DNA of 64,000 nucleotides, taken from the sequence record NC_041937.1; one strand, given 5' to 3'. Below are positions 23,257 to 38,992 of the stretch, piece by piece (position 1 is the stretch's first letter; each line of letters begins with the position of its first letter). Below the pieces are notes generated by a model that saw only the letters and a list, made by a program, of their open reading frames with translations, was not told the DNA's origin and did no database searches. The stretch comes from Escherichia phage V18. The position numbers and the translations under genes were made by a program.

Positions 23257-25329
23257 TTATGAGAAGTCTGGCGGGACAACATCTTCTACATACCCTTTCA
23301 GAGCAACCTGCCCCATATGAAGCACGGTAGAATCTCTAGCGGTAACAGTGATGCTGTCAGACATTACTTGCGGGTATGCCCACACATACTGTTTTACCTC
23401 AGGGTATCTATACTCTATAGTTGCCATGTTTCCGCAAATACATCTCCATAAAAATTCTTGGTAATTCCTAGTTGGGTCGTAGCCATATACCGGAGCAAGC
23501 TCTTTACTAGGAACGAACCCTGCAAGGTATTGTATTTCAGACGGTTGCCAACCTAACTTAACGATAGGTATGTTTACAGACTCTTTTGCCTTTTCAATAC
23601 CTCCCTGCATCACCCAATCGTAGCACTCGGTGCAGAAGAAATCAAGAGCACCTGCTTCCTTTTTATATTGGTCAGCAAGGTTCAGCTTTTGTGTAAGCTC
23701 AGTTTCCATAATGGTTGGGAAAAACAACAAAGCTGTCATCTGAGCTGATGCAGCGTGTGCCTTTATTGCCTTTGAAATAGCCGCAATACGAGCGCCAAGC
23801 TTACCACGACAAAATGCTACATACTTGTCGTAAACACCGCCAGTTTTAGGATCGTCAATAGTCCCAATATCTAATGCATACTCACCTGTCTCATCATAAA
23901 ACGCCTGCTTTGTAGGATAATCATAAATACAAGGTCTACGAGTATCGGTATTGTACCACCACCACGGTTCACCAACCTGCATAATCACTGGCAGGTTGTT
24001 TCTCATAGCGGCTGATGCAAAATTCTTAAATACTGCAGTAAGGAAATTCATACCCTCTTCAATGGTTGGAGACAGGAGGTAGCTACAAGGTGTATACCCT
24101 GTTTTAGCGTAGTTATCGTTCCAGTCTCTTTGGGTCCATTCCAACGGGCAGGCATCGCTGAAAAGCTCAAAACTTACAGATTGCATAACGTCGAAGTTAT
24201 GTCGTTTGGCATTGTACATAAAATCATCATGCCATTTATAAGCTGCAGCGTTTAGCGCTCCTGTTCTGTTTATAGACCATTGAGTTCCTGACCATGTGTA
24301 GTCATAATAATGACTCATACCAACATAATGGTTTATGGTTCCGGTATAGCCCAGACGCTTGATATTGTTCAACACCCTTAAAGGAGATACGTTCCACATG
24401 TCGTCATATGCGGTGCAGATCCCAACGTCGTGCTCTCTCACCTGAATATTGTTAAGTTGCATCATTTTCCAGCCTGTGTCTGGCTGAAGCAGATCTAGGC
24501 GCAACTCACACTCTACATTTTCCGTTCTCGGGTCTGTGCTATTACTTACCCAGTCTTTAGGCATGAGCGGTATTAAAATCCTTCTCACCTGCCGAGGATC
24601 AACACCCATCATGCTGTTATTCTGGTCCATCCCGACGCAGTCCTCAAAATCAATATGAATTTCTGCAACATTCTTATCCTCTGAGATGCTGACAGCATAT
24701 TGAGCTAAAGGAACATAGATGATTGTGCCATCAACAAGGTCTACAGTCATAATCATCTTTTCAGGAGTGGAGAAGTTGCTGGCGTTGGTTATTGACATTC
24801 TGAACCAAAGCTTGGTGTTTCTCATCTCATAGTGATCATCGAACCCAATACCGAAATGGTCATACTTGTCAACTGTTTCCCAAATGCACCCAGCCATACC
24901 TCCATATGTTCTTGACACTAAACGGTTAATACAACAGTTGTTATCTGCAACAATACAGGTACTTTCAGTCTGCTGAGTAGTTGTAACCCAATACCTTGGG
25001 TGGAACATTCTCTCCTCGACAGTATCCCAAGATATCCTGTCAAGATTCTCATCTGAAACTATTGTACATTTCGCCCTTTGTGTCCCAATCATCACCCCTT
25101 GGGATTTTGATGAAAACTCCATAAAGAAGCTTCTTGGCAACCTATTGGGTAATTTGTCAACAATTTCCACCGGGATCTCAATACTGGTTGCCCCAATTGG
25201 GATAGTTACATCGCCCTCAACATGATTATAATCCCTACCAGGAACAGCAGTATCCTGAACTGTTCGGTAATGAAACTGTGCGGCCATTGTAGAGTAATCA
25301 CGGTAAGGTTTAAAAACAGCTGTTGCCAT
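23257..25329 (-). CDS. large tail-associated protein with Calx-beta-like N-terminal domain
   Basis: 690-aa ORF; DYNHVEGDVTIPIGATSIEIPVEIVD resembles Calx-beta motif. Confidence 0.5.
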   Translation of the reverse strand: MATAVFKPYRDYSTMAAQFHYRTVQDTAVPGRDYNHVEGDVTIPIGATSIEIPVEIVDKLPNRLPRSFFMEFSSKSQGVMIGTQRAKCTIVSDENLDRISWDTVEERMFHPRYWVTTTQQTESTCIVADNNCCINRLVSRTYGGMAGCIWETVDKYDHFGIGFDDHYEMRNTKLWFRMSITNASNFSTPEKMIMTVDLVDGTIIYVPLAQYAVSISEDKNVAEIHIDFEDCVGMDQNNSMMGVDPRQVRRILIPLMPKDWVSNSTDPRTENVECELRLDLLQPDTGWKMMQLNNIQVREHDVGICTAYDDMWNVSPLRVLNNIKRLGYTGTINHYVGMSHYYDYTWSGTQWSINRTGALNAAAYKWHDDFMYNAKRHNFDVMQSVSFELFSDACPLEWTQRDWNDNYAKTGYTPCSYLLSPTIEEGMNFLTAVFKNFASAAMRNNLPVIMQVGEPWWWYNTDTRRPCIYDYPTKQAFYDETGEYALDIGTIDDPKTGGVYDKYVAFCRGKLGARIAAISKAIKAHAASAQMTALLFFPTIMETELTQKLNLADQYKKEAGALDFFCTECYDWVMQGGIEKAKESVNIPIVKLGWQPSEIQYLAGFVPSKELAPVYGYDPTRNYQEFLWRCICGNMATIEYRYPEVKQYVWAYPQVMSDSITVTARDSTVLHMGQVALKGYVEDVVPPDFS

Positions 25330-32031: not shown

Positions 32032-33064
32032 TTACTTCAGTTTCTCTTGCAACCCAGTAACAACCTCTGTCAATTTTTTAACCTGCTCCTCAAGGGCGGT
32101 TATTTTATCATCCTGCTCCCTGCAAACCTGGACAAGCAAGCCTGTTACAGCTGCGTAATCCACGCTGTAGAATCTTTCCTCTGTTATCAAAGGAGTTCCA
32201 TCTTGATCAGGGTTTGGGATTTCCTTTCTTTGCACGAAAGAGCTAACTGCTTCCGGCAGCGCTTCAAGCACCTCTTGTGCTATAACACCTGCATAAGGCA
32301 TACCATTCTCTTTCAAGGTGTAGGTATAACCCTTCATCTTACGGATAGCTTCTAACGCATCAGGAATAACAACTATGTTATCTTTCAGGTCTCTGTCAGA
32401 ACTCTGATTGACAGATGTGCAATTCACAGCACCGTTTACAGAAAGATATCTTGATTTATCCGGCAAGGTACCGCAATGCCATACATAAGCTGATTGAGAC
32501 TCGTCAAGAACCTTAAACTCTAGCACGTTTGGACGAGTCCCTGCACTGCCGTTGCCCCAATAATGCTGCCATCTGGAAAGCGTAGTTTCCAGAAAATGCC
32601 ACAGACAACCCGCCAACAACCATTGAACCTTCAGGTCCGTTGACGTTGCCAGCCAGTATTTTGGATGGGTTGTTAGGCCCAAACTGGTTGTTCCAGTCTG
32701 CACCAGTATGACATACAAAACCACCCGGTGCTGAGAAAGTGCCATCTTTGTTGAAGTTGTAGAATCTATGAGCTGTGCCTACAACATCGCGAACGATAAC
32801 TTGACCAGCTTCCGGAGTAGATCTGAACTCTGCCTGGCCTTGCAGTCTTGCACCATTACCACATTTAGAGGTAAAGGTGTTGTTGATCAGATCCTCTGTT
32901 CCTTCTGATGCAGCTTGGAACCCTGCGTTAGAGAACAGTGCTTTTCTAGTGGTCTGACTACCAGGACAAATGTAGTCAATACCGTCTGCCCAAAGCTCGA
33001 CTTTAGGCATGTTCATTTTGCTCATCACTGCATAGCGTTCAGGAGTCCCCAGGTAGTGCCACAT
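32032..33064 (-). CDS. tail fibre distal segment with C-terminal intramolecular chaperone (peptidase S74-like) domain; internal frameshift
   Basis: ORF 32513..33064 and ORF 32032..32745 overlap in different frames; C-terminal SSDRDLKDNIVVIPDALEAIRKMKGY...VIAQEV matches the S74 autoproteolytic chaperone signature. Confidence 0.5.
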
Positions 33065-33163
33065 AGTTCCACCACCAGTGTAGAAACCTGATGTTCCTTT
33101 GAACTCAACCAGAGGTCTGGTGTTTGTTACATCATCACCTTTGATTGCAAGACTTGGAAAGAA

Positions 33164-34963
33164 TCACCTCTGTCTGTCCAGCCACCAGTTCTGTAGTGAC
33201 ACTGTAGTGTAGCACAGTTCATTGGGTCCCCCTACAGTCCTGGCACTGGTACCACCACAAGCTATCGGTAGTGGTTCCCATTTGGCTTTCCGGTTGTTAT
33301 AAACACCCCATTCCAAACTGCCGTTACCGGATTCGTCCATCCCGCCATCCCAGATGACCATCTTGGCGGCTTTCTTAGATCCCCAGAAACCTCTTTCTGC
33401 TCCTGAACTGCGGATCCATTCTCCAAGTCCCCAGTTTGCCAGCTGACCGTTCAGATCACCAACCTGCATATATTTAGGACAATCTAAGACCCCATCCTCA
33501 CGGAAGCCTAAATATCTATGAGTTTCAGATCCTTTTGCGCCTTTGTGCAGGTGGATTGTCAACCAAGCCTTATTGTCGTTTCTTACCTCAGAGTAGATCC
33601 TATACCCATGCTCAAGGACACCGTCAGCGCTGTATTTGTCCCCGTTAACAATACCTGATGCTGACTTAACATCAGCAGAACTTTGAGACAGGTAAAGGTG
33701 CCCAAAGGTAGGGGAGTTTCTAGACCCGAGACCGATGTGTGCTCTAAAGGTATCATCGTTACGAGGTCTGACCATCGGCTGCCATGCAGTCCACTGATTT
33801 GTGTTGGCCTGGTAGGTTCTCAAATACCAAACATCTACGTTAGAGAATGGATAGTATTCCTGACGACAACCTGTACCGCCGTTAGCATTGTTCTGCCAAA
33901 CAATCAAGTGACCAGCACCAGAACCTGCAGGGTAACCATTTGCCTCAGTTGCATAGGCAGTCATCGGCTGGTAGTACACACCATCCTGATTACCAGTTAA
34001 GTTATTGATATTGAAATTTGGCTCAAGGGCTGCACGTTGCTTATAGAAAGCCCCCAAGTTAATGCGTGAACCTGCGGCATCCCTGGCACCTGTGCCGCCT
34101 TGCTCTATAGCAAGAGGTTGCCACGAAGCTGTTTGTTGGTTCCACATACCCCAACGGCCTGTTGCATCAAGCTGCAAGTACCCTGCTGTGTTTAAATCAT
34201 CTCCAGCACGGATAACTGTTCTTGTTGGGTTGTTTGCCTCTAGGCGTTTAAATTCATCACGAAGTGCTATTCTTTTTGTTGTTGCTACACCGTTGGTTAC
34301 TGCAATGGTATACATGGCTCCGGTGGTAGCGCCACGGAAAATACCATCAACAGTTGTAGTATCACGACGAGATACCACACCATTCAGAAATTTTTCACCA
34401 GCTGCTACAGAAGGGTAGTTGGTAGTTCTTCCCTCTTCAATAACTGCAGGGCCAACAAAGTTATCAAGGTGAATAACATCGCCTACAGTGTGCACTGTAC
34501 CAAAATCTACACGCTGTGCAAGGGCTTTAGCATCGTTAGCTGTCTGAACAGTAACATCCATTACATCCTGGACAGACTGCCCTTCGGCTGTCATAATCAT
34601 AGATGCGCCAATGGTAGATTCCAGCTCCTCCCTTAAGGACGGATCTGTATATACCATCCATGCAGCGTCAGTAATCCCACCATCGGAGTACGGTGAAGAT
34701 AGTGCAGGGACAGTGTGTGGAAATTCGCCTTTCCAACGCAGGTAGAGGTCTTCCTCTTCGAAGTAGGCAAAATCCATTGGGCCGTTTAACTTACCACCTT
34801 CCTTAAAGGAGATTACATGAGAAACAGTCCCATCCACATGGACAACATCGCCAATTTTTACACGACGAGTCAGGTCTGGTTGTTGAACAACCAGGTAATC
34901 ATCCTCTGTCACTGCGGTAGTGGCAGGAAGAGATTCAATTCTGACAACTTTAATATCAGCCAT
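33164..34963 (-). CDS. tail fibre protein (N-terminal anchor plus shaft)
   Basis: 599-aa ORF; N-terminal DDYLVVQQPDLTRRVKIGDVV shared with 37598..38266; ends at a TGA that is in frame with the downstream fibre segment. Confidence 0.55.
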   Translation of the reverse strand: MADIKVVRIESLPATTAVTEDDYLVVQQPDLTRRVKIGDVVHVDGTVSHVISFKEGGKLNGPMDFAYFEEEDLYLRWKGEFPHTVPALSSPYSDGGITDAAWMVYTDPSLREELESTIGASMIMTAEGQSVQDVMDVTVQTANDAKALAQRVDFGTVHTVGDVIHLDNFVGPAVIEEGRTTNYPSVAAGEKFLNGVVSRRDTTTVDGIFRGATTGAMYTIAVTNGVATTKRIALRDEFKRLEANNPTRTVIRAGDDLNTAGYLQLDATGRWGMWNQQTASWQPLAIEQGGTGARDAAGSRINLGAFYKQRAALEPNFNINNLTGNQDGVYYQPMTAYATEANGYPAGSGAGHLIVWQNNANGGTGCRQEYYPFSNVDVWYLRTYQANTNQWTAWQPMVRPRNDDTFRAHIGLGSRNSPTFGHLYLSQSSADVKSASGIVNGDKYSADGVLEHGYRIYSEVRNDNKAWLTIHLHKGAKGSETHRYLGFREDGVLDCPKYMQVGDLNGQLANWGLGEWIRSSGAERGFWGSKKAAKMVIWDGGMDESGNGSLEWGVYNNRKAKWEPLPIACGGTSARTVGGPNELCYTTVSLQNWWLDRQR

Positions 34964-34998: not shown

Positions 34999-37596
34999 TT
35001 AAAGGTACAATCCACGGTATTGAGCATAAAGGCCTAGACCGCGAAGGATTTCGCCAGAGTGATAGCCAACCGGGTCAGAAACTGCCCAGCAGCCGTTTAA
35101 AATATTATCCCCATTAATGAAGTGGTGCTTTTGCAGTAGCTTCACACAGGCTTCCACAACAATATCTATTTGAGGTATTGTCTCTGAATACCCGCAAAGA
35201 CCTAGCCAGCAGCAACCTGCAAGCCATTCACCTACCACCCACATCCTGTCTCCTCTGTCCTGATAAGAATATCCCCCAGAGGTGTTAAAGTCTGTAGGCA
35301 GATTTCCTGAATGAGATGACTGGAATCTGTTGAGGAACCATGCCCATTTCTGGCAGAACAGGAATAGTCTTTCATCAACAGGTTCTTTATGTTTCTTGAG
35401 CTCATATATTGTGCGGCACGCAGCAACAAAAGATCTTGACTGGAGCTTAGAGTTATCTACCATCTCCCACCAACCAGTCAACCCTTCATTACCTCTTTGC
35501 CATACATAACGTGAGGCAACTGGACCCTCTGTCTTAAATGTATTATTATACCAGACTTGAGCGTCATACAGAAAGCCTATTGTATTTGACAATCTATGGC
35601 GATCTATGTTTTCTGCACCCATGCAGTAGACTGCTGGGTATTGCATGCCAGGGTAGGGCCAATTTGGCTTTTCCTCTAAGAGATAGTTTTCCTTATCTAT
35701 CATCTTTCCGGCAGGGAACACACCCGGTGTGTGCCTGTATGCACCTTGCTTGTAGTTTCTGACATAGCAATCTCCAACCTTAGCGGTTGATTCTGTCTTG
35801 CTTGCCATCCATACACTAAACCAGATTAGATAAGCATCCCTATCTGCAATATAGAATTGCGGCAGCGTGTTGACGCAATATAGATCAAACAAGCCATTAC
35901 CTATCTGCCTGTCGCTTAGGCTGAAATCTACAGAGGTGAGCCCCTTAGGATTAGCAAAGAAAGGTTTAATCTCTTCTTCGGTGTGGTGAGGTTGTGTCGG
36001 ATCTAGTTTGAAATCTCCTAGAGTAAGAGTTTCTGTTATCCATTGTCCATTAGTGGCATATAGATCAGCATACCATAACCACCTGTCTTTGTCAAGAAAT
36101 TTGACCCTTACCATCTCATCATCTGATCGATAAGTTACTGAGTTTAAAGAAACCTCTCTTCCAAAATTGAAAGTTACTTTACCTCTTGCTATATTACAAC
36201 GGGTGAAGTTGTCAGAGTGGTTGTAAATGTCGGTATCATACTGCATACTGACACTAGCGCCACCGCTCACGGCAATGTTTTCCTCTTTAGGTAAGAGATA
36301 CGGATTACCGTCTTTACCAACCACCTCTACAAAATCAGTAACCTTGGCAACTGTTTCTGTTACCTCTGCCCCTCCAAAAGGGACACCTATTCTGTACTGT
36401 TTTTTGTTATTGTTACCATCATTAAGGATGAAATGTGGTTGGAACAGAACCCCTTCTCCTCCGAAATTCATAACAATTTCAGCATCTCTGCCTATTTTGT
36501 ATGTAGTCCCTTTTTGGATTATTTCGCAAGGCTGGCGTGCGTTCATTCTAAAATTGATATATCCGTCACTATCCCTACTCATGACAGGTACTGTTCCTGC
36601 AACTAGACAAGTGCCATCTGTGAACGGGGCCTTAATCAACGTGGTCTTTCTGAACAGCTTGTCGTAGGCATTTATATCACTAAAATTAAGCAACTTATTG
36701 TAAGACTGCTTAAACGCGGTGTAATACTTTTCCTCACCTGTCAAGGTATAGAGTTGATAGCAAGCGTCACACCACATCTCTTCCCCGTCTAACTCTGTGG
36801 CTTGATTGTCTGCAACCACATTTATAGGATTTACAATTACAGGGGATCCAGCAGGTATCACCGATCCACCCTGCTCTTGTGGCAATCTCACACAGTAGGT
36901 CACCTTGTGGCTGCCTGTAACACCCTTATCCTGCAGTTGGATTGTGCCGAACTCTGCAGACGTATGACCACTATCGGCTATGCTACCGTTGGCCCAATAG
37001 CGGTTACCATCCCATGCTATATACCACTCAACCCACCAACTTAACCCGGATGTTGTCCAATCTGGGTTAGCATCTGTGCCACCGTAAACATCAGAGTCTA
37101 CAGTGTTTCTTCCTAATACACCGTTATATGCTTGAAATGCCTTGTCCAGGTATTCCCCCCATGTCGGAGATCCAGCTGGGATTTTTCCTCTACCATTGGT
37201 AAAAGATACCACCACATCTTTAAACCCACCATGTGATGGAACCCCATCTGTGGATAGAGGGTAGTGGGACAATCTTTGCATTTTACTTTCTACTGCATAT
37301 GCACCCAAAAGATGACTATTGTAAGCTTCCCAAGCATCTTTTGCCCTATCCAAGTAGAAATCGCTTTTCGATGCCCTGTATGCTTCAATGTACCCCAGAA
37401 TCAACACAGCTTGGGACTCATGCATTGCCCAATCATTATTTATCTTATTACCTGCCCACCCTGCAGCTATAAGACCATCAGGGTTTACTAGCTTATTTTG
37501 TGTGGGAGTGTTGGTAATACCTGTGTTGTTATCGAGGCACTTCCTGTGCCCCTCAATCATCTGAAATACGTTATCAATGTTGTGTTGAATACGCAT
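34999..37596 (-). CDS. large tail-associated protein, possible polysaccharide-degrading domain
   Basis: 865-aa ORF; enzymatic assignment is a guess from composition. Confidence 0.45.
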   Translation of the reverse strand: MRIQHNIDNVFQMIEGHRKCLDNNTGITNTPTQNKLVNPDGLIAAGWAGNKINNDWAMHESQAVLILGYIEAYRASKSDFYLDRAKDAWEAYNSHLLGAYAVESKMQRLSHYPLSTDGVPSHGGFKDVVVSFTNGRGKIPAGSPTWGEYLDKAFQAYNGVLGRNTVDSDVYGGTDANPDWTTSGLSWWVEWYIAWDGNRYWANGSIADSGHTSAEFGTIQLQDKGVTGSHKVTYCVRLPQEQGGSVIPAGSPVIVNPINVVADNQATELDGEEMWCDACYQLYTLTGEEKYYTAFKQSYNKLLNFSDINAYDKLFRKTTLIKAPFTDGTCLVAGTVPVMSRDSDGYINFRMNARQPCEIIQKGTTYKIGRDAEIVMNFGGEGVLFQPHFILNDGNNNKKQYRIGVPFGGAEVTETVAKVTDFVEVVGKDGNPYLLPKEENIAVSGGASVSMQYDTDIYNHSDNFTRCNIARGKVTFNFGREVSLNSVTYRSDDEMVRVKFLDKDRWLWYADLYATNGQWITETLTLGDFKLDPTQPHHTEEEIKPFFANPKGLTSVDFSLSDRQIGNGLFDLYCVNTLPQFYIADRDAYLIWFSVWMASKTESTAKVGDCYVRNYKQGAYRHTPGVFPAGKMIDKENYLLEEKPNWPYPGMQYPAVYCMGAENIDRHRLSNTIGFLYDAQVWYNNTFKTEGPVASRYVWQRGNEGLTGWWEMVDNSKLQSRSFVAACRTIYELKKHKEPVDERLFLFCQKWAWFLNRFQSSHSGNLPTDFNTSGGYSYQDRGDRMWVVGEWLAGCCWLGLCGYSETIPQIDIVVEACVKLLQKHHFINGDNILNGCWAVSDPVGYHSGEILRGLGLYAQYRGLYL

Positions 37597-37597
37597 C

Positions 37598-38266
37598 TTA
37601 GATAGCTCCTGCGATAATCAGTGCCCCGTACCAAGTTAACCCGTTGTCGTAGGTTTCCAACTTGAAAATATCTGTTGCACCAGCTGTAAATGTTAGGATA
37701 GGATCTCTTCCGTAGGACCATTTAACATTATCAGGCCAATAGACTTTGTTGCCGCCAGAGGTCTGAGTAATGCATACGGTTATAGTTCTCGCCACCCCTT
37801 CAAGACCTTCTGCTTGATTTTCAAAAGAGATTGTGGTATTTGAAGTTAGTCGAACCTTAAAGGTATCCGCAACTTCAAGATCCATATCAAGCTGACCACC
37901 GATAGATCCGTAATCAACTATTCTGCCAGAAGAAGTTGCAGCAAGCTCACCAAAAACAGACCAGGCATTTGCAGACACACCCCCAGCACCCTCTACAGTG
38001 GAGTCTGGGAGGATTATTTTAGGATAATCCCCGTTCCACGTGTAGTAGCGCTTAGTCTCTGGGTCATAAGCAAAGTCCTTCTTGCTCTTAAGATAACCAC
38101 CCTCTGTGAAATAGACTATCTTAGTGATACTAAGATCGTTGACAACATCGTCAATCTTAGCCTTTCTTGTCCCATCAGTCTGGTTGACAACCAAGAAGTC
38201 ATCACTCAGGACTGTTTCTGCATCTTCAAGATCTGGAATTGGTATTGTAGGATAAGCTACAGCCAT
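37598..38266 (-). CDS. tail protein with fibre-type N-terminal anchor domain
   Basis: 222-aa ORF; N-terminus similar to 599-aa fibre; stop is 1 nt from next start. Confidence 0.45.
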   Translation of the reverse strand: MAVAYPTIPIPDLEDAETVLSDDFLVVNQTDGTRKAKIDDVVNDLSITKIVYFTEGGYLKSKKDFAYDPETKRYYTWNGDYPKIILPDSTVEGAGGVSANAWSVFGELAATSSGRIVDYGSIGGQLDMDLEVADTFKVRLTSNTTISFENQAEGLEGVARTITVCITQTSGGNKVYWPDNVKWSYGRDPILTFTAGATDIFKLETYDNGLTWYGALIIAGAI

Positions 38267-38275
38267 GATTTCTCC

Positions 38276-38992
38276 TTAGTTAACATCAATAGCACGACCA
38301 GACTGGTTGGCAATAGCCTCATCGTTGGAGGTAGCAATAACACCAGAGTATTCGCGCTCATCTGGAGCAAGCGTCCAGGTATTGCGGTTAATGGTTTGTT
38401 CTGCCTCAGTCATCAGCAGATCTTTATCCTGAGTCAACAGAGAGCCTACAGGGATCGGGTTTTCCATCTCAGGACCAGCATACTGGTTCCACCATGTGGC
38501 ATCTCCGGTTCTAGGCAATCTGAAGTTGATCAGATAGTACAGTTTATTAGCCCACTTAATCCAACCCTCATCATCACAAAGAGAGGTTGTCCCAGAATCA
38601 GGTTGTGGGTAGGTGAACTGATCAAGACCTACGAAAGCCAGTCTTACAATCTCGTTCTCTTTGGTAACAACCTCAAAGAACGCTTGGTATGTTCTCGATC
38701 TTCGATCCATGGTGGACTGGAAGTTTATGATGTTTAGCACATCCGGCTCTTGTCTTGCCACTTCCATGATCTTGTTATCAAGAACAGTCTTCATGACCTT
38801 CTTACTGAGAAAGTCCATATAAGGGAAGCCAAACAGCTCGTCGAAGTACCAGCTCCCCTTCCACGTATTAAACCTCATCCACAAGCGCTGGCGCAGACTT
38901 ACCTGGTTTGAATCTATCAACTCAAGACCTTTGTCTATCGCCAAATCGCCTGTCTGTGGGTCCATCAATATATCACTATAAAGCGTAGCCAT
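38276..38992 (-). CDS. baseplate wedge protein, T4 gp25/GPW-like
   Basis: 238-aa ORF; LYSDI...TWKGSWYFDELFG matches the gp25 signature LYSDI...TRKGSRPFDPEFG. Confidence 0.65.
   Translation of the reverse strand: MATLYSDILMDPQTGDLAIDKGLELIDSNQVSLRQRLWMRFNTWKGSWYFDELFGFPYMDFLSKKVMKTVLDNKIMEVARQEPDVLNIINFQSTMDRRSRTYQAFFEVVTKENEIVRLAFVGLDQFTYPQPDSGTTSLCDDEGWIKWANKLYYLINFRLPRTGDATWWNQYAGPEMENPIPVGSLLTQDKDLLMTEAEQTINRNTWTLAPDEREYSGVIATSNDEAIANQSGRAIDVN

Follow-up and report, generated by a model that had tools for sequence, protein, structure and literature searches.

Escherichia phage V18 carries an intact rV5 gp43/gp42 gene pair that probably encodes a two-component tail appendage

In Escherichia phage V18, a 222-aa ORF beginning with a virion-anchor motif ends one nucleotide before the start codon of an 865-aa ORF. 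Does this junction mark a single tailspike gene broken in two, or does it separate two genuine genes, an adaptor and an enzyme? The initial annotation had left both readings standing. We therefore analysed the window, that is, the whole 64,000-nucleotide stretch of record NC_041937.1, which is from a Vequintavirus and is 97–98% identical to rV5-like coliphages. The two ORFs are both present on the minus strand, with the boundaries and lengths originally proposed (Table 1), and the sequence between them reads gct atc TAA g ATG cgt, in agreement with the described stop codon and single intervening nucleotide. It is also correct that the 865-aa protein lacks an anchor: it has no such N-terminus and no match in Pfam or NCBIfam.

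Table 1. Coordinates of the gene pair, its parts and its neighbours in the V18 window
Feature	Position	Strand	Description
Upstream neighbour	38276..38992	minus	238 aa; baseplate or sheath-initiator protein, phi92 gp139-like; phrog_4233 and phrog_120
Small tail protein gene	37598..38266	minus	222 aa; ORF; orthologue of rV5 gp43, homologue of phi92 gp140; proposed anchor/adaptor
N-terminal ~110 aa of small protein	37937..38266	minus	virion-anchor motif DDFLVVNQTDGTRKAKIDDVV, then Tail_spike_N; varies among lineages
C-terminal ~105–110 aa of small protein	37601..37936	minus	putative all-beta; kept in every lineage; proposed docking domain
Coupling junction	37594..37610	minus	AGGAG 37610..37606, TAA 37600..37598, G 37597, ATG 37596..37594
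Large tail protein gene	34999..37596	minus	865 aa; orthologue of rV5 gp42, homologue of phi92 gp141
Lateral tail fibre fragment	33164..34963	minus	N-terminal 578 aa and frameshifted tail; rV5 gp41-type; comparator of the initial annotation

Comparison with relatives answers the first part of the question. In each of the 13 lineages compared, at identities down to 25%, the junction separates two genes with a stop and a start of their own. The lineages include Vequintavirus, a metagenomic relative with 56% identity, Seunavirus, Phapecoctavirus and the jumbo Asteriusvirus, as well as a 243-kb Salmonella phage, a 157-kb Vibrio phage, Ounavirinae, Loughboroughvirus, the podophage families Grimontviridae and Autographiviridae, and a Burkholderia prophage. 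The small and large genes overlap by as much as 8 nt or lie up to 14 nt apart, and each of the frame offsets 0, 1 and 2 is represented. The best 30 records listed for the junction region align across it in a single indel-free stretch of 4301 nt and, among the rV5-like matches listed, the records with annotation shown carry the region as separate genes. Such conservation of the two-gene arrangement across 13 lineages refutes the suggestion of a broken tailspike gene and is the very pattern that the initial annotation had regarded as incompatible with it.

The idea that a frameshift, nonsense mutation or sequencing error has divided a single tailspike or fibre gene, with an anchor-plus-enzyme fusion of ~1088 aa as its proper product, drew on the 1-nt separation and on the presence of an anchor in the 222-aa but not in the 865-aa protein. 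The adjoining fibre gene is, moreover, truly disrupted in the V18 window. The initial annotation took the 599-aa ORF for a complete fibre, but it is the truncated N-terminal part of a protein that has 1270–1274 aa in relatives (1272 aa in the case of rV5 gp41; PMC3606486). In a tblastn search, residues 1–578, 639–663, 742–946 and 1094–1270 of the 1270-aa fibre of Bas59 match the window in frames -1, -2, -1 and -2, respectively, and the window lacks 179, 233 and 469 nt of internal sequence in three places. These three deletions in the rV5 gp41-type lateral fibre gene, next to the pair, distinguish the V18 locus from that of rV5; nothing of substance differs in the pair itself.

The properties of the individual proteins further speak against a split. 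The 222-aa protein matches phrog_7760, a stand-alone family with a 223-position profile, from end to end (residues 1–221 of 222 on profile positions 1–222 of 223, E = 7e-120). It has the ~220-aa length and the position directly upstream of a gp42/gp141 homologue, here with a 1-nt gap, that are typical of this gp43/gp140 family (PHROG 7760), and shares 98–100% identity with its annotated counterparts in rV5-like phages. The 865-aa protein belongs to the gp42/gp141 family (PHROG 2871; phrog_2871, E = 0), the members of which share full-length homology, a length of ~860–1000 aa and their own N-terminus. In 517 of 523 records, tblastn coverage of this protein is 96–100%. Word-indexed protein searches returned 6 and 4 matches only, too few for deep alignments, and an exhaustive HMMER search was more useful. 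Among the HMMER representatives reaching the N-terminus of the large-protein query, 32 out of 34 begin within their own residues 1–19 and none carries the C-terminal domain of the small protein upstream; likewise, no small-then-large fusion is present among 92 representative clusters. Finally, two products are detected in virions. Both gp42 and gp43 are among the rV5 virion proteins identified by mass spectrometry (PMC3606486), and the homologues in phage S144, ORF16 and ORF17, were found in its virions by the same technique at 21 and 111 kDa (PMC7432712). The probability that a single gene was split is accordingly negligible. The region holds two genes of an rV5-like phage, both intact and translated separately. 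It is the ordinary, already known and already annotated rV5 gp43/gp42 locus and does not warrant a broken-gene flag. Proteins gp140 and gp141 of phage phi92 are more distant homologues, the large one linked through the annotation of S144 and the small one through a record note.

The manner in which the two genes abut points to translational coupling. A Shine-Dalgarno sequence, AGGAG, is located inside the final codons of the 222-aa gene, ahead of the ATG of the 865-aa gene, and in the six myovirus lineages compared a similar purine-rich stretch, either AGGAG or a variant (AGGAT and TGGAG, for instance), lies 7–10 nt 5' of the large-gene start. Together with the TAA-G-ATG arrangement, this sequence would permit coupled re-initiation, which may help joint production of the gp43 and gp42 partners. 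The close spacing could alternatively be taken as a sign of programmed +1 frameshifting or stop-codon bypass, yielding a minor gp43–gp42 fusion beside the two separate proteins in the manner of the tail chaperone G/GT, since the two frames would become continuous upon a +1 shift in the final seven small-gene codons. Yet the last 150 nt of the 222-aa gene contain no slippery heptamer of the XXXYYYZ type, and a TGA at 37620..37618 closes the 865-aa frame eight codons before its ATG. In addition, neither the frame relation nor the spacing (-8 to +14 nt) is conserved, unlike what is expected of a G/GT-type pair, and the canonical Shine-Dalgarno sequence and ATG account for expression. We consider such a fusion very improbable. 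A promoter and terminator scan for the pair gave no signal above chance. The upstream neighbour is annotated as a baseplate protein in Bas59, and its L014 orthologue carries the PF10934 Sheath_initiator domain; thus, the pair belongs to a baseplate and fibre operon.

The small protein consists of two parts that differ in their conservation. Its N-terminal part resembles that of the neighbouring lateral fibre, and the similarity exceeds the anchor motif originally quoted: in BLASTP, residues 8–105 match residues 7–105 of the 599-aa ORF with 38% identity over 99 aa (E = 1e-18). Both ORFs contain PF18668 Tail_spike_N, with scores of 41 and 41.9 bits against a curated cut-off of 25, at residues 51–105 in the case of the 222-aa protein. 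Among the window ORFs of 60 aa or more, all of them searched with jackhmmer, this module is confined to these two. In other lineages, unrelated N-termini take its place. In Yersinia phage phiR8-01, the N-terminus of the small-protein homologue is PF03906 Phage_T7_tail, the T7 fibre anchor, and the pair sits between a lytic-transglycosylase protein (g042) and a DNA-packaging gene (g047), an interval corresponding to the tail fibre site of T7-like phages. In the Burkholderia prophage, an unrelated SPRY-containing region of 368 aa occupies the N-terminal position.

The C-terminal part is conserved in all lineages. Alignments reveal the signature Q-G-x-G-x-N-K-V-x-W-P ... D-x-G-x-T-W-x-G and the invariant residues L140, Q168, G171, W177, W183, L191, D199, D207, G209, W212 and G214. 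This domain has no match in Pfam and, profile searches included, no sequence match in the PDB; a T4 gp10-like branching or docking domain was likewise not found on the 222-aa protein by Pfam or PDB sequence matching. The AF2 model of the whole protein, built from a four-sequence alignment, is poor (pLDDT 41), and we found no solved structure of either gp43 or gp42.

The label of tailspike given earlier to the large protein is misleading, since it is predicted to fold into a glycosidase-like six-hairpin (alpha/alpha)6 toroid (helices at ~59–95, 269–306 and 654–860) with beta-sandwich insertions (~126–237 and 329–622), in a model of medium quality (pLDDT 70, with 171 residues below 50). The right-handed parallel beta-helix of tailspike depolymerases of the P22 gp9 type is not seen. 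A conserved helix occupies residues 2–22, and E60, Q62, D270 and E272 are conserved across 30 homologues. The six-hairpin hydrolases and epimerases (GH8, GH48, GH76, GH88, GH105 and the AGE superfamily) are 10–13% identical to the V18 protein, whose predicted toroid differs from theirs in being interrupted by beta-sandwich insertions totalling ~400 aa. Membership of a glycoside hydrolase family could not be assigned, with no Pfam match of the 865-aa protein at E <= 0.1. A Pfam scan of the 30 homologues produced two weak matches to GH76 (E = 0.0034) and one to GH127 (E = 0.0083), and none to GH8. Because no CAZy or Pfam glycosidase family was matched, the toroid could be non-catalytic. A deacetylase of the N4 gp64 type was also considered. 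This glycan-deacetylase fibre, which Maffei 2021 and Sellner 2021 connect with the NGR receptor, is common to N4 and Vequintavirinae, in the latter encoded in the tail-fibre gene cluster that also includes the pair. The 865-aa protein is not this fibre: N4 gp64 maps to 23350..24279 of the window (27% identity, E = 2e-27) and has no match in 34999..38266.

Taken together, we consider it quite probable that the translationally coupled genes encode a two-component tail appendage, in which gp43 is the adaptor and gp42 an enzyme-like receptor-binding protein. The N-terminal ~110 aa of gp43, being the same module as in the lateral fibre, would fix gp43 to the baseplate, and its conserved C-terminal beta domain of ~110 aa would hold gp42, which itself lacks an anchor and is predicted to combine the glycosidase-like domain with beta-sandwich domains. 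We infer physical docking of gp42 on the C-terminal domain of gp43 from adjacency, co-occurrence and correlated divergence. During adsorption, gp42 most likely binds a host surface glycan and probably cleaves or modifies it as its substrate. Of the adaptor-plus-enzyme reading offered initially, the two genes and the anchor on one partner are borne out by the data, and docking and catalysis are suggested by them.

The large protein is found in 523 phage records and the small one in 512, with nearly identical genus counts; the genes are adjacent in every sampled record, and by tblastn the C-terminal half of the small protein adjoins a large-protein homologue in ~500 phage records. The C-terminal domain is found only directly upstream of a large-protein homologue, with an odd fragment (P0069) as the sole exception. 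Among 12 related taxa, this domain and the large protein diverge in parallel (Mantel r = 0.42, p = 0.001), a correlation that would also fit simple co-inheritance without contact; the N-terminal part shows no such relation (r = -0.05, p = 0.6).

Co-inheritance within a fibre cassette might indeed explain the adjacency if the two proteins were independent neighbours, the small one being a short fibre or baseplate decoration and the large one attaching by its own N-terminal helix or through another partner. The conserved helix could itself serve for attachment, and other modules fused to large-protein homologues suggest that attachment is flexible. An N4 gp65-like NCTSP_N domain and a TIM barrel are fused C-terminally in P0024 and P0029, and N-terminal extensions of ~270 aa are present in P0029, P0040 and P0034. 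We do not count the extensions as a fused C-terminal domain of the small protein, as the HMM and hhalign comparisons are not significant, the best match being a terminal motif of 16–21 residues with an hhalign probability of 0.95%. In phage S144, the pair adjoins head-to-tail connector genes rather than baseplate genes, and the site of attachment may therefore vary from phage to phage. The authors of the 2026 cryo-EM study of phi92 treat gp140 as a candidate fibre alone (PMC13450770). Against independence, the C-terminal domain stays next to the large protein through exchanges of the anchor half, even at the tail-fibre site of a T7-like podophage, and its divergence follows that of the large protein. 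Besides, a beta domain of 100 aa is unlikely to be the receptor-binding fibre for hosts ranging from Vibrio to Burkholderia. Two independent neighbours are, in our view, rather unlikely. Even less likely is it that the small protein serves the large one as an assembly chaperone and not as a structural adaptor. Chaperones are often encoded by small genes beside fibre genes, and this role would be consistent with tight translational coupling; but the small gene lies upstream rather than downstream, its product bears a bona fide virion-anchor and Tail_spike_N module, and the protein is present in purified virions of rV5 and S144.

The proposed appendage of adaptor and enzyme-like partner has known counterparts. 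Podophages K1-5, K1E and SP6 carry a gp37-type adaptor and a tailspike, with the anchor on one protein and an anchorless enzyme hung on it, and branched receptor-binding complexes are formed by G7C gp66 with gp63.1 and by TSP1–4 of CBA120. As in V18, one partner in these systems is anchored and the other lacks an anchor. CBA120 TSP1 and G7C gp66 also give PF18668 Tail_spike_N its name, a domain shared by the 222-aa protein. The V18 pair differs from the K1-5, G7C and CBA120 systems: the proposed docking element is a distinct C-terminal beta domain of ~105 aa, and the cargo is a predicted (alpha/alpha)6 toroid rather than a trimeric beta-helix or SGNH esterase.

Phages of the rV5 and phi92 types are prized for their broad host range, and neither the place of the large protein in the virion nor its substrate is reported in the cited literature. 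In the phi92 cryo-EM structure, one set of fibres, 'fiber II', was left unassigned, gp140 fitted no fibre density and gp141 received no mention (PMC13450770). In a bolder reading, which we consider less likely than not, the pair may represent a portable two-gene receptor-binding cassette found across phages with contractile or short tails, jumbo phages and a prophage, in which a previously undescribed docking domain of ~105 aa would join any lineage-specific anchor to a glycanase-type (alpha/alpha)6 protein that is not a beta-helix. On this reading, a complex of gp43 and gp42 could be the 'fiber II' baseplate density in both types of phages. The signature of the C-terminal domain suggests itself as a marker of adaptors for ~900-aa six-hairpin glycosidase-like receptor-binding proteins. 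For phage engineering and annotation, the suggested rule is that the anchor half may be exchanged between very different tails.

The two ORFs described in the initial annotation, separated by TAA and one nucleotide, are present in the sequence. At their junction the sequence is gct atc TAA g ATG cgt, with the stop codon at 37600..37598, the single G at 37597 and the start codon at 37596..37594; all genes at this locus lie on the minus strand. Over 100 rV5-like coliphages (genus Vequintavirus) share 97-98% identity with the region, and the alignment with the best 30 records listed is a single indel-free piece of 4301 nt that includes the junction. In two annotated relatives, the BASEL phage Bas59 and rV5_ev147, the 669-nt and 2598-nt genes are annotated as two; they follow the hub, central spike and sheath-initiator genes and precede a 3813-nt lateral tail fibre gene. 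By length and order, the pair is rV5 gp43 (222 aa) and gp42. The resemblance of the gp43 N-terminus to a tailspike N-terminus was noted in the rV5 paper (PMC3606486). Their rV5 orthologues are annotated and have been detected by proteomics, so the finding as such is already known and ordinary. Eighteen unannotated GenBank records (MG0656xx, e.g. H19, H20 and H25), named 'Campylobacter phage' with Campylobacter jejuni as host, are ~97% identical to E. coli rV5-like phages across the whole region, and their host labels look doubtful.

Features of the tail-associated locus and of the N4-related region
Feature	Position	Strand	Remarks
Small-protein ORF	37598..38266	minus	222 aa / 669 nt
Large-protein ORF	34999..37596	minus	865 aa / 2598 nt
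AGGAG (Shine-Dalgarno)	37610..37606	minus	9 nt before large-gene ATG, within last codons of small gene
Remains of lateral tail fibre gene	32032..34963	minus	rV5 gp41 type, 1270-1274 aa in relatives
Fibre, front fragment	33164..34963	minus	599-aa ORF
Fibre, downstream fragments	32513..33064, 32032..32745		
N4 gp64 homologue	23350..24279	minus	27% identity, residues 97-408, E 2e-27
N4 gp65	24253..24426		short match

The two proteins co-occur: by tblastn, 523 phage records contain the large protein and 512 the small one, and the counts per genus are almost the same for both. Among distant phages, conservation of the small protein is confined to its C-terminal half, which sits directly upstream of the large gene. 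Homologous pairs were fetched and the junction was measured lineage by lineage, covering phages with contractile tails (Vequintavirus, Seunavirus 4MG, Phapecoctavirus anhysbys, Erwinia phiEa21-4 of the Ounavirinae, Salmonella S144 of Loughboroughvirus) and short tails (Cronobacter GAP52 of the Grimontviridae, Yersinia phiR8-01 of the Autographiviridae), jumbo phages (Asteriusvirus, a 243-kb Salmonella phage), a 157-kb Vibrio phage unclassified in its record, a 56%-identical metagenomic relative with the Vequintavirus gene order, and a Burkholderia vietnamiensis prophage. In all of them the small gene ends at its own stop and the large gene begins at its own start, the two overlap by up to 8 nt or lie up to 14 nt apart, and frame offsets of 0, 1 and 2 are all seen. 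An exhaustive HMMER search among 1.84 billion representative proteins yielded only 92 relatives of the large protein; 34 of these align as far as the query N-terminus, and in 32 of them the match starts within their own first 19 residues, and none of these relatives carries the small-protein C-domain ahead of the homologous region. Both homologues were detected by mass spectrometry in S144 virions, as 21-kDa and 111-kDa proteins (PMC7432712). Thus, homologues are consistently encoded as two genes, the outcome that the initial annotation had named as speaking against one broken tailspike gene. That there are two genuine genes is near-certain, and a broken gene is essentially excluded, given the separate signals in every lineage and their varied spacing and frames. 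A programmed frameshift, which would join the two frames during translation, can be dismissed with much the same firmness: there is no slippery heptamer at the junction, and a TGA shuts the large-gene frame 8 codons upstream of its ATG.

The small protein consists of two halves. Its N-terminus is 38% identical to that of the 599-aa ORF over 99 residues (E = 1e-18), so that the shared anchor motif reported earlier is real and the similarity extends well past it. Both proteins score above the curated Pfam cut-off for PF18668 (Tail_spike_N), and no other window ORF of 60 aa or more has this module. The 599-aa ORF itself, called a fibre in the initial annotation, is the front fragment of a lateral tail fibre. 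Three stretches present in Bas59, where the fibre has 1270 aa, are missing from the window: 179 nt at 33229|33228, 233 nt at ~33154 and 469 nt at 32568|32565. No stretch has a length divisible by 3, so the fibre lies in four frame-shifted pieces (frames -1, -2, -1, -2); no direct repeats flank the three deletions. The long form is present in all 12 of the best relatives listed, and the disruption is either genuine, making this a pseudogene or deletion variant, or an artefact of assembly.

The C-terminal ~105 aa of the small protein are conserved in all lineages, with the motif Q-G-x-G-x-N-K-V-x-W-P-x-N-V-K-W ... D-x-G-x-T-W-x-G and 12 invariant columns among 11 sequences; this domain has no match among Pfam families or PDB sequences. 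The N-terminal half is swapped from one lineage to another. Vequintavirus and Seunavirus have the anchor motif and Tail_spike_N here, and Phapecoctavirus has the short anchor alone; in the T7-like phiR8-01 it is PF03906, the N-terminal domain of the T7 tail fibre, and in the Burkholderia prophage an Ala/Ser-rich, SPRY-containing region of 368 aa; in our reading of the alignment, the GAP52 and S144 N-termini appear low-complexity and helix-like. The phiR8-01 pair sits between a lytic-transglycosylase protein and a DNA-packaging gene, the usual place of a T7-like tail fibre. Pairwise divergence of the C-domain follows large-protein divergence (Mantel r = 0.42, p = 0.001), and divergence of the N-terminal part is unrelated to it (r = -0.05, p = 0.6). 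The small protein bears an anchor and occurs in virions, which makes it an unlikely chaperone.

The large protein lacks the anchor module, as first proposed, and matches no Pfam or NCBIfam family. Its N-terminus is conserved (predicted helix at residues 2-22, motif G-H-x-x-F-L-x-R-N-T-G). The AF2 model (pLDDT 70, pTM 0.56) predicts toroid helices at ~59-95, 269-306 and 654-860 with beta-sandwich domains in between, and the family profile gives only weak matches, to the helical-hairpin motif of six-hairpin enzymes. Candidates for the active site are two near-invariant pairs of residues, E60/Q62 in the consensus TEGQS and D270/E272 in the consensus DAExW, and the protein matches no glycosidase family by sequence. 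In the Ounavirinae (phiEa21-4, our L007, 3068..7275) the large protein has 1157 aa, and homology with the window protein begins only at residue 411 (window residue 189). In the 293-aa metagenomic protein P0069, a match to the N-terminal part of the large protein (residues 18-195) is followed by one to the small-protein C-terminal domain (residues 201-286, E 2e-19), the reverse of the usual order and within a single short ORF; P0069 may be a remnant of recombination or a chimera created in assembly.

Of the adaptor-plus-enzyme pair suggested initially, the two genes stand, as do their conservation and co-occurrence, the swapped anchor, the predicted fold and, from the literature, the presence in virions; the physical complex, its position in the virion, catalysis and the substrate are what we infer. 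The small protein would fix to the baseplate through its N-terminal module, probably at a site equivalent to that of the neighbouring lateral fibre, since the module is the same. Its C-terminal domain would hold the anchor-less, glycosidase-like large protein, which would bind and probably cut or modify surface polysaccharide during adsorption. Translational coupling would result from the stop-G-ATG junction and the internal Shine-Dalgarno site, whose counterpart, either AGGAG or a variant (AGGAT and TGGAG among them), is seen again in the other myovirus lineages. We consider this adaptor model likely, and give enzymatic activity about an even chance. The serious rival is that the two are co-inherited neighbours attaching independently. 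The metagenomic homologues P0024 (1557 aa) and P0029 (1795 aa) have N4 gp65-like non-contractile tail sheath modules fused at their C-termini (PF23844 NCTSP_N and PF23845 TIM barrel, E 1e-21 to 1e-78), and P0029, P0040 and P0034 have extensions of ~270-290 aa N-terminal to the homologous region, both in line with independent attachment. The same holds for a 2026 cryo-EM paper on phi92, which took gp140 alone as a candidate fibre; gp140 did not fit the unassigned 'fiber II', and gp141 is unmentioned (PMC13450770). The C-terminal fusions mean that the large protein can itself be a platform for further receptor-binding modules. A further homologue, P0020, has a glycine-rich domain at its C-terminus. 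The extensions are not significantly similar to the small-protein C-domain and share with it only a short F-x-T-x-D-x-G-x-T-W-x-G-like motif at their end (hhalign probability 0.95%); that of P0034 has a sub-threshold DUF7941 match. In S144 (our L006, 1869..5446) the pair directly follows head-to-tail connector genes and is not among the baseplate genes, so the attachment site of the cassette may differ among phages.

A fibre component shared by N4 and Vequintavirinae has been described as a glycan deacetylase and linked to the NGR receptor (Maffei 2021, Sellner 2021). The pair is not this gp64-type fibre, as N4 gp64 maps elsewhere in the window.

In its logic, the adaptor model matches known adaptor-plus-tailspike arrangements, namely the K1-5 and SP6 adaptor, G7C gp66 with gp63.1, and the CBA120 TSPs. 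The Tail_spike_N domain of the small protein is common to such systems. No T4 gp10-like domain was detected, so the docking domain differs from theirs, and the cargo is a predicted six-hairpin toroid instead of a beta-helix or SGNH esterase. We infer a portable cassette across phage families, in which the anchor can be swapped while the docking domain is conserved and is paired with a six-hairpin protein. This view, which we did not find in the searchable literature, may be of use in assigning the fibre that is missing for phi92 and rV5.
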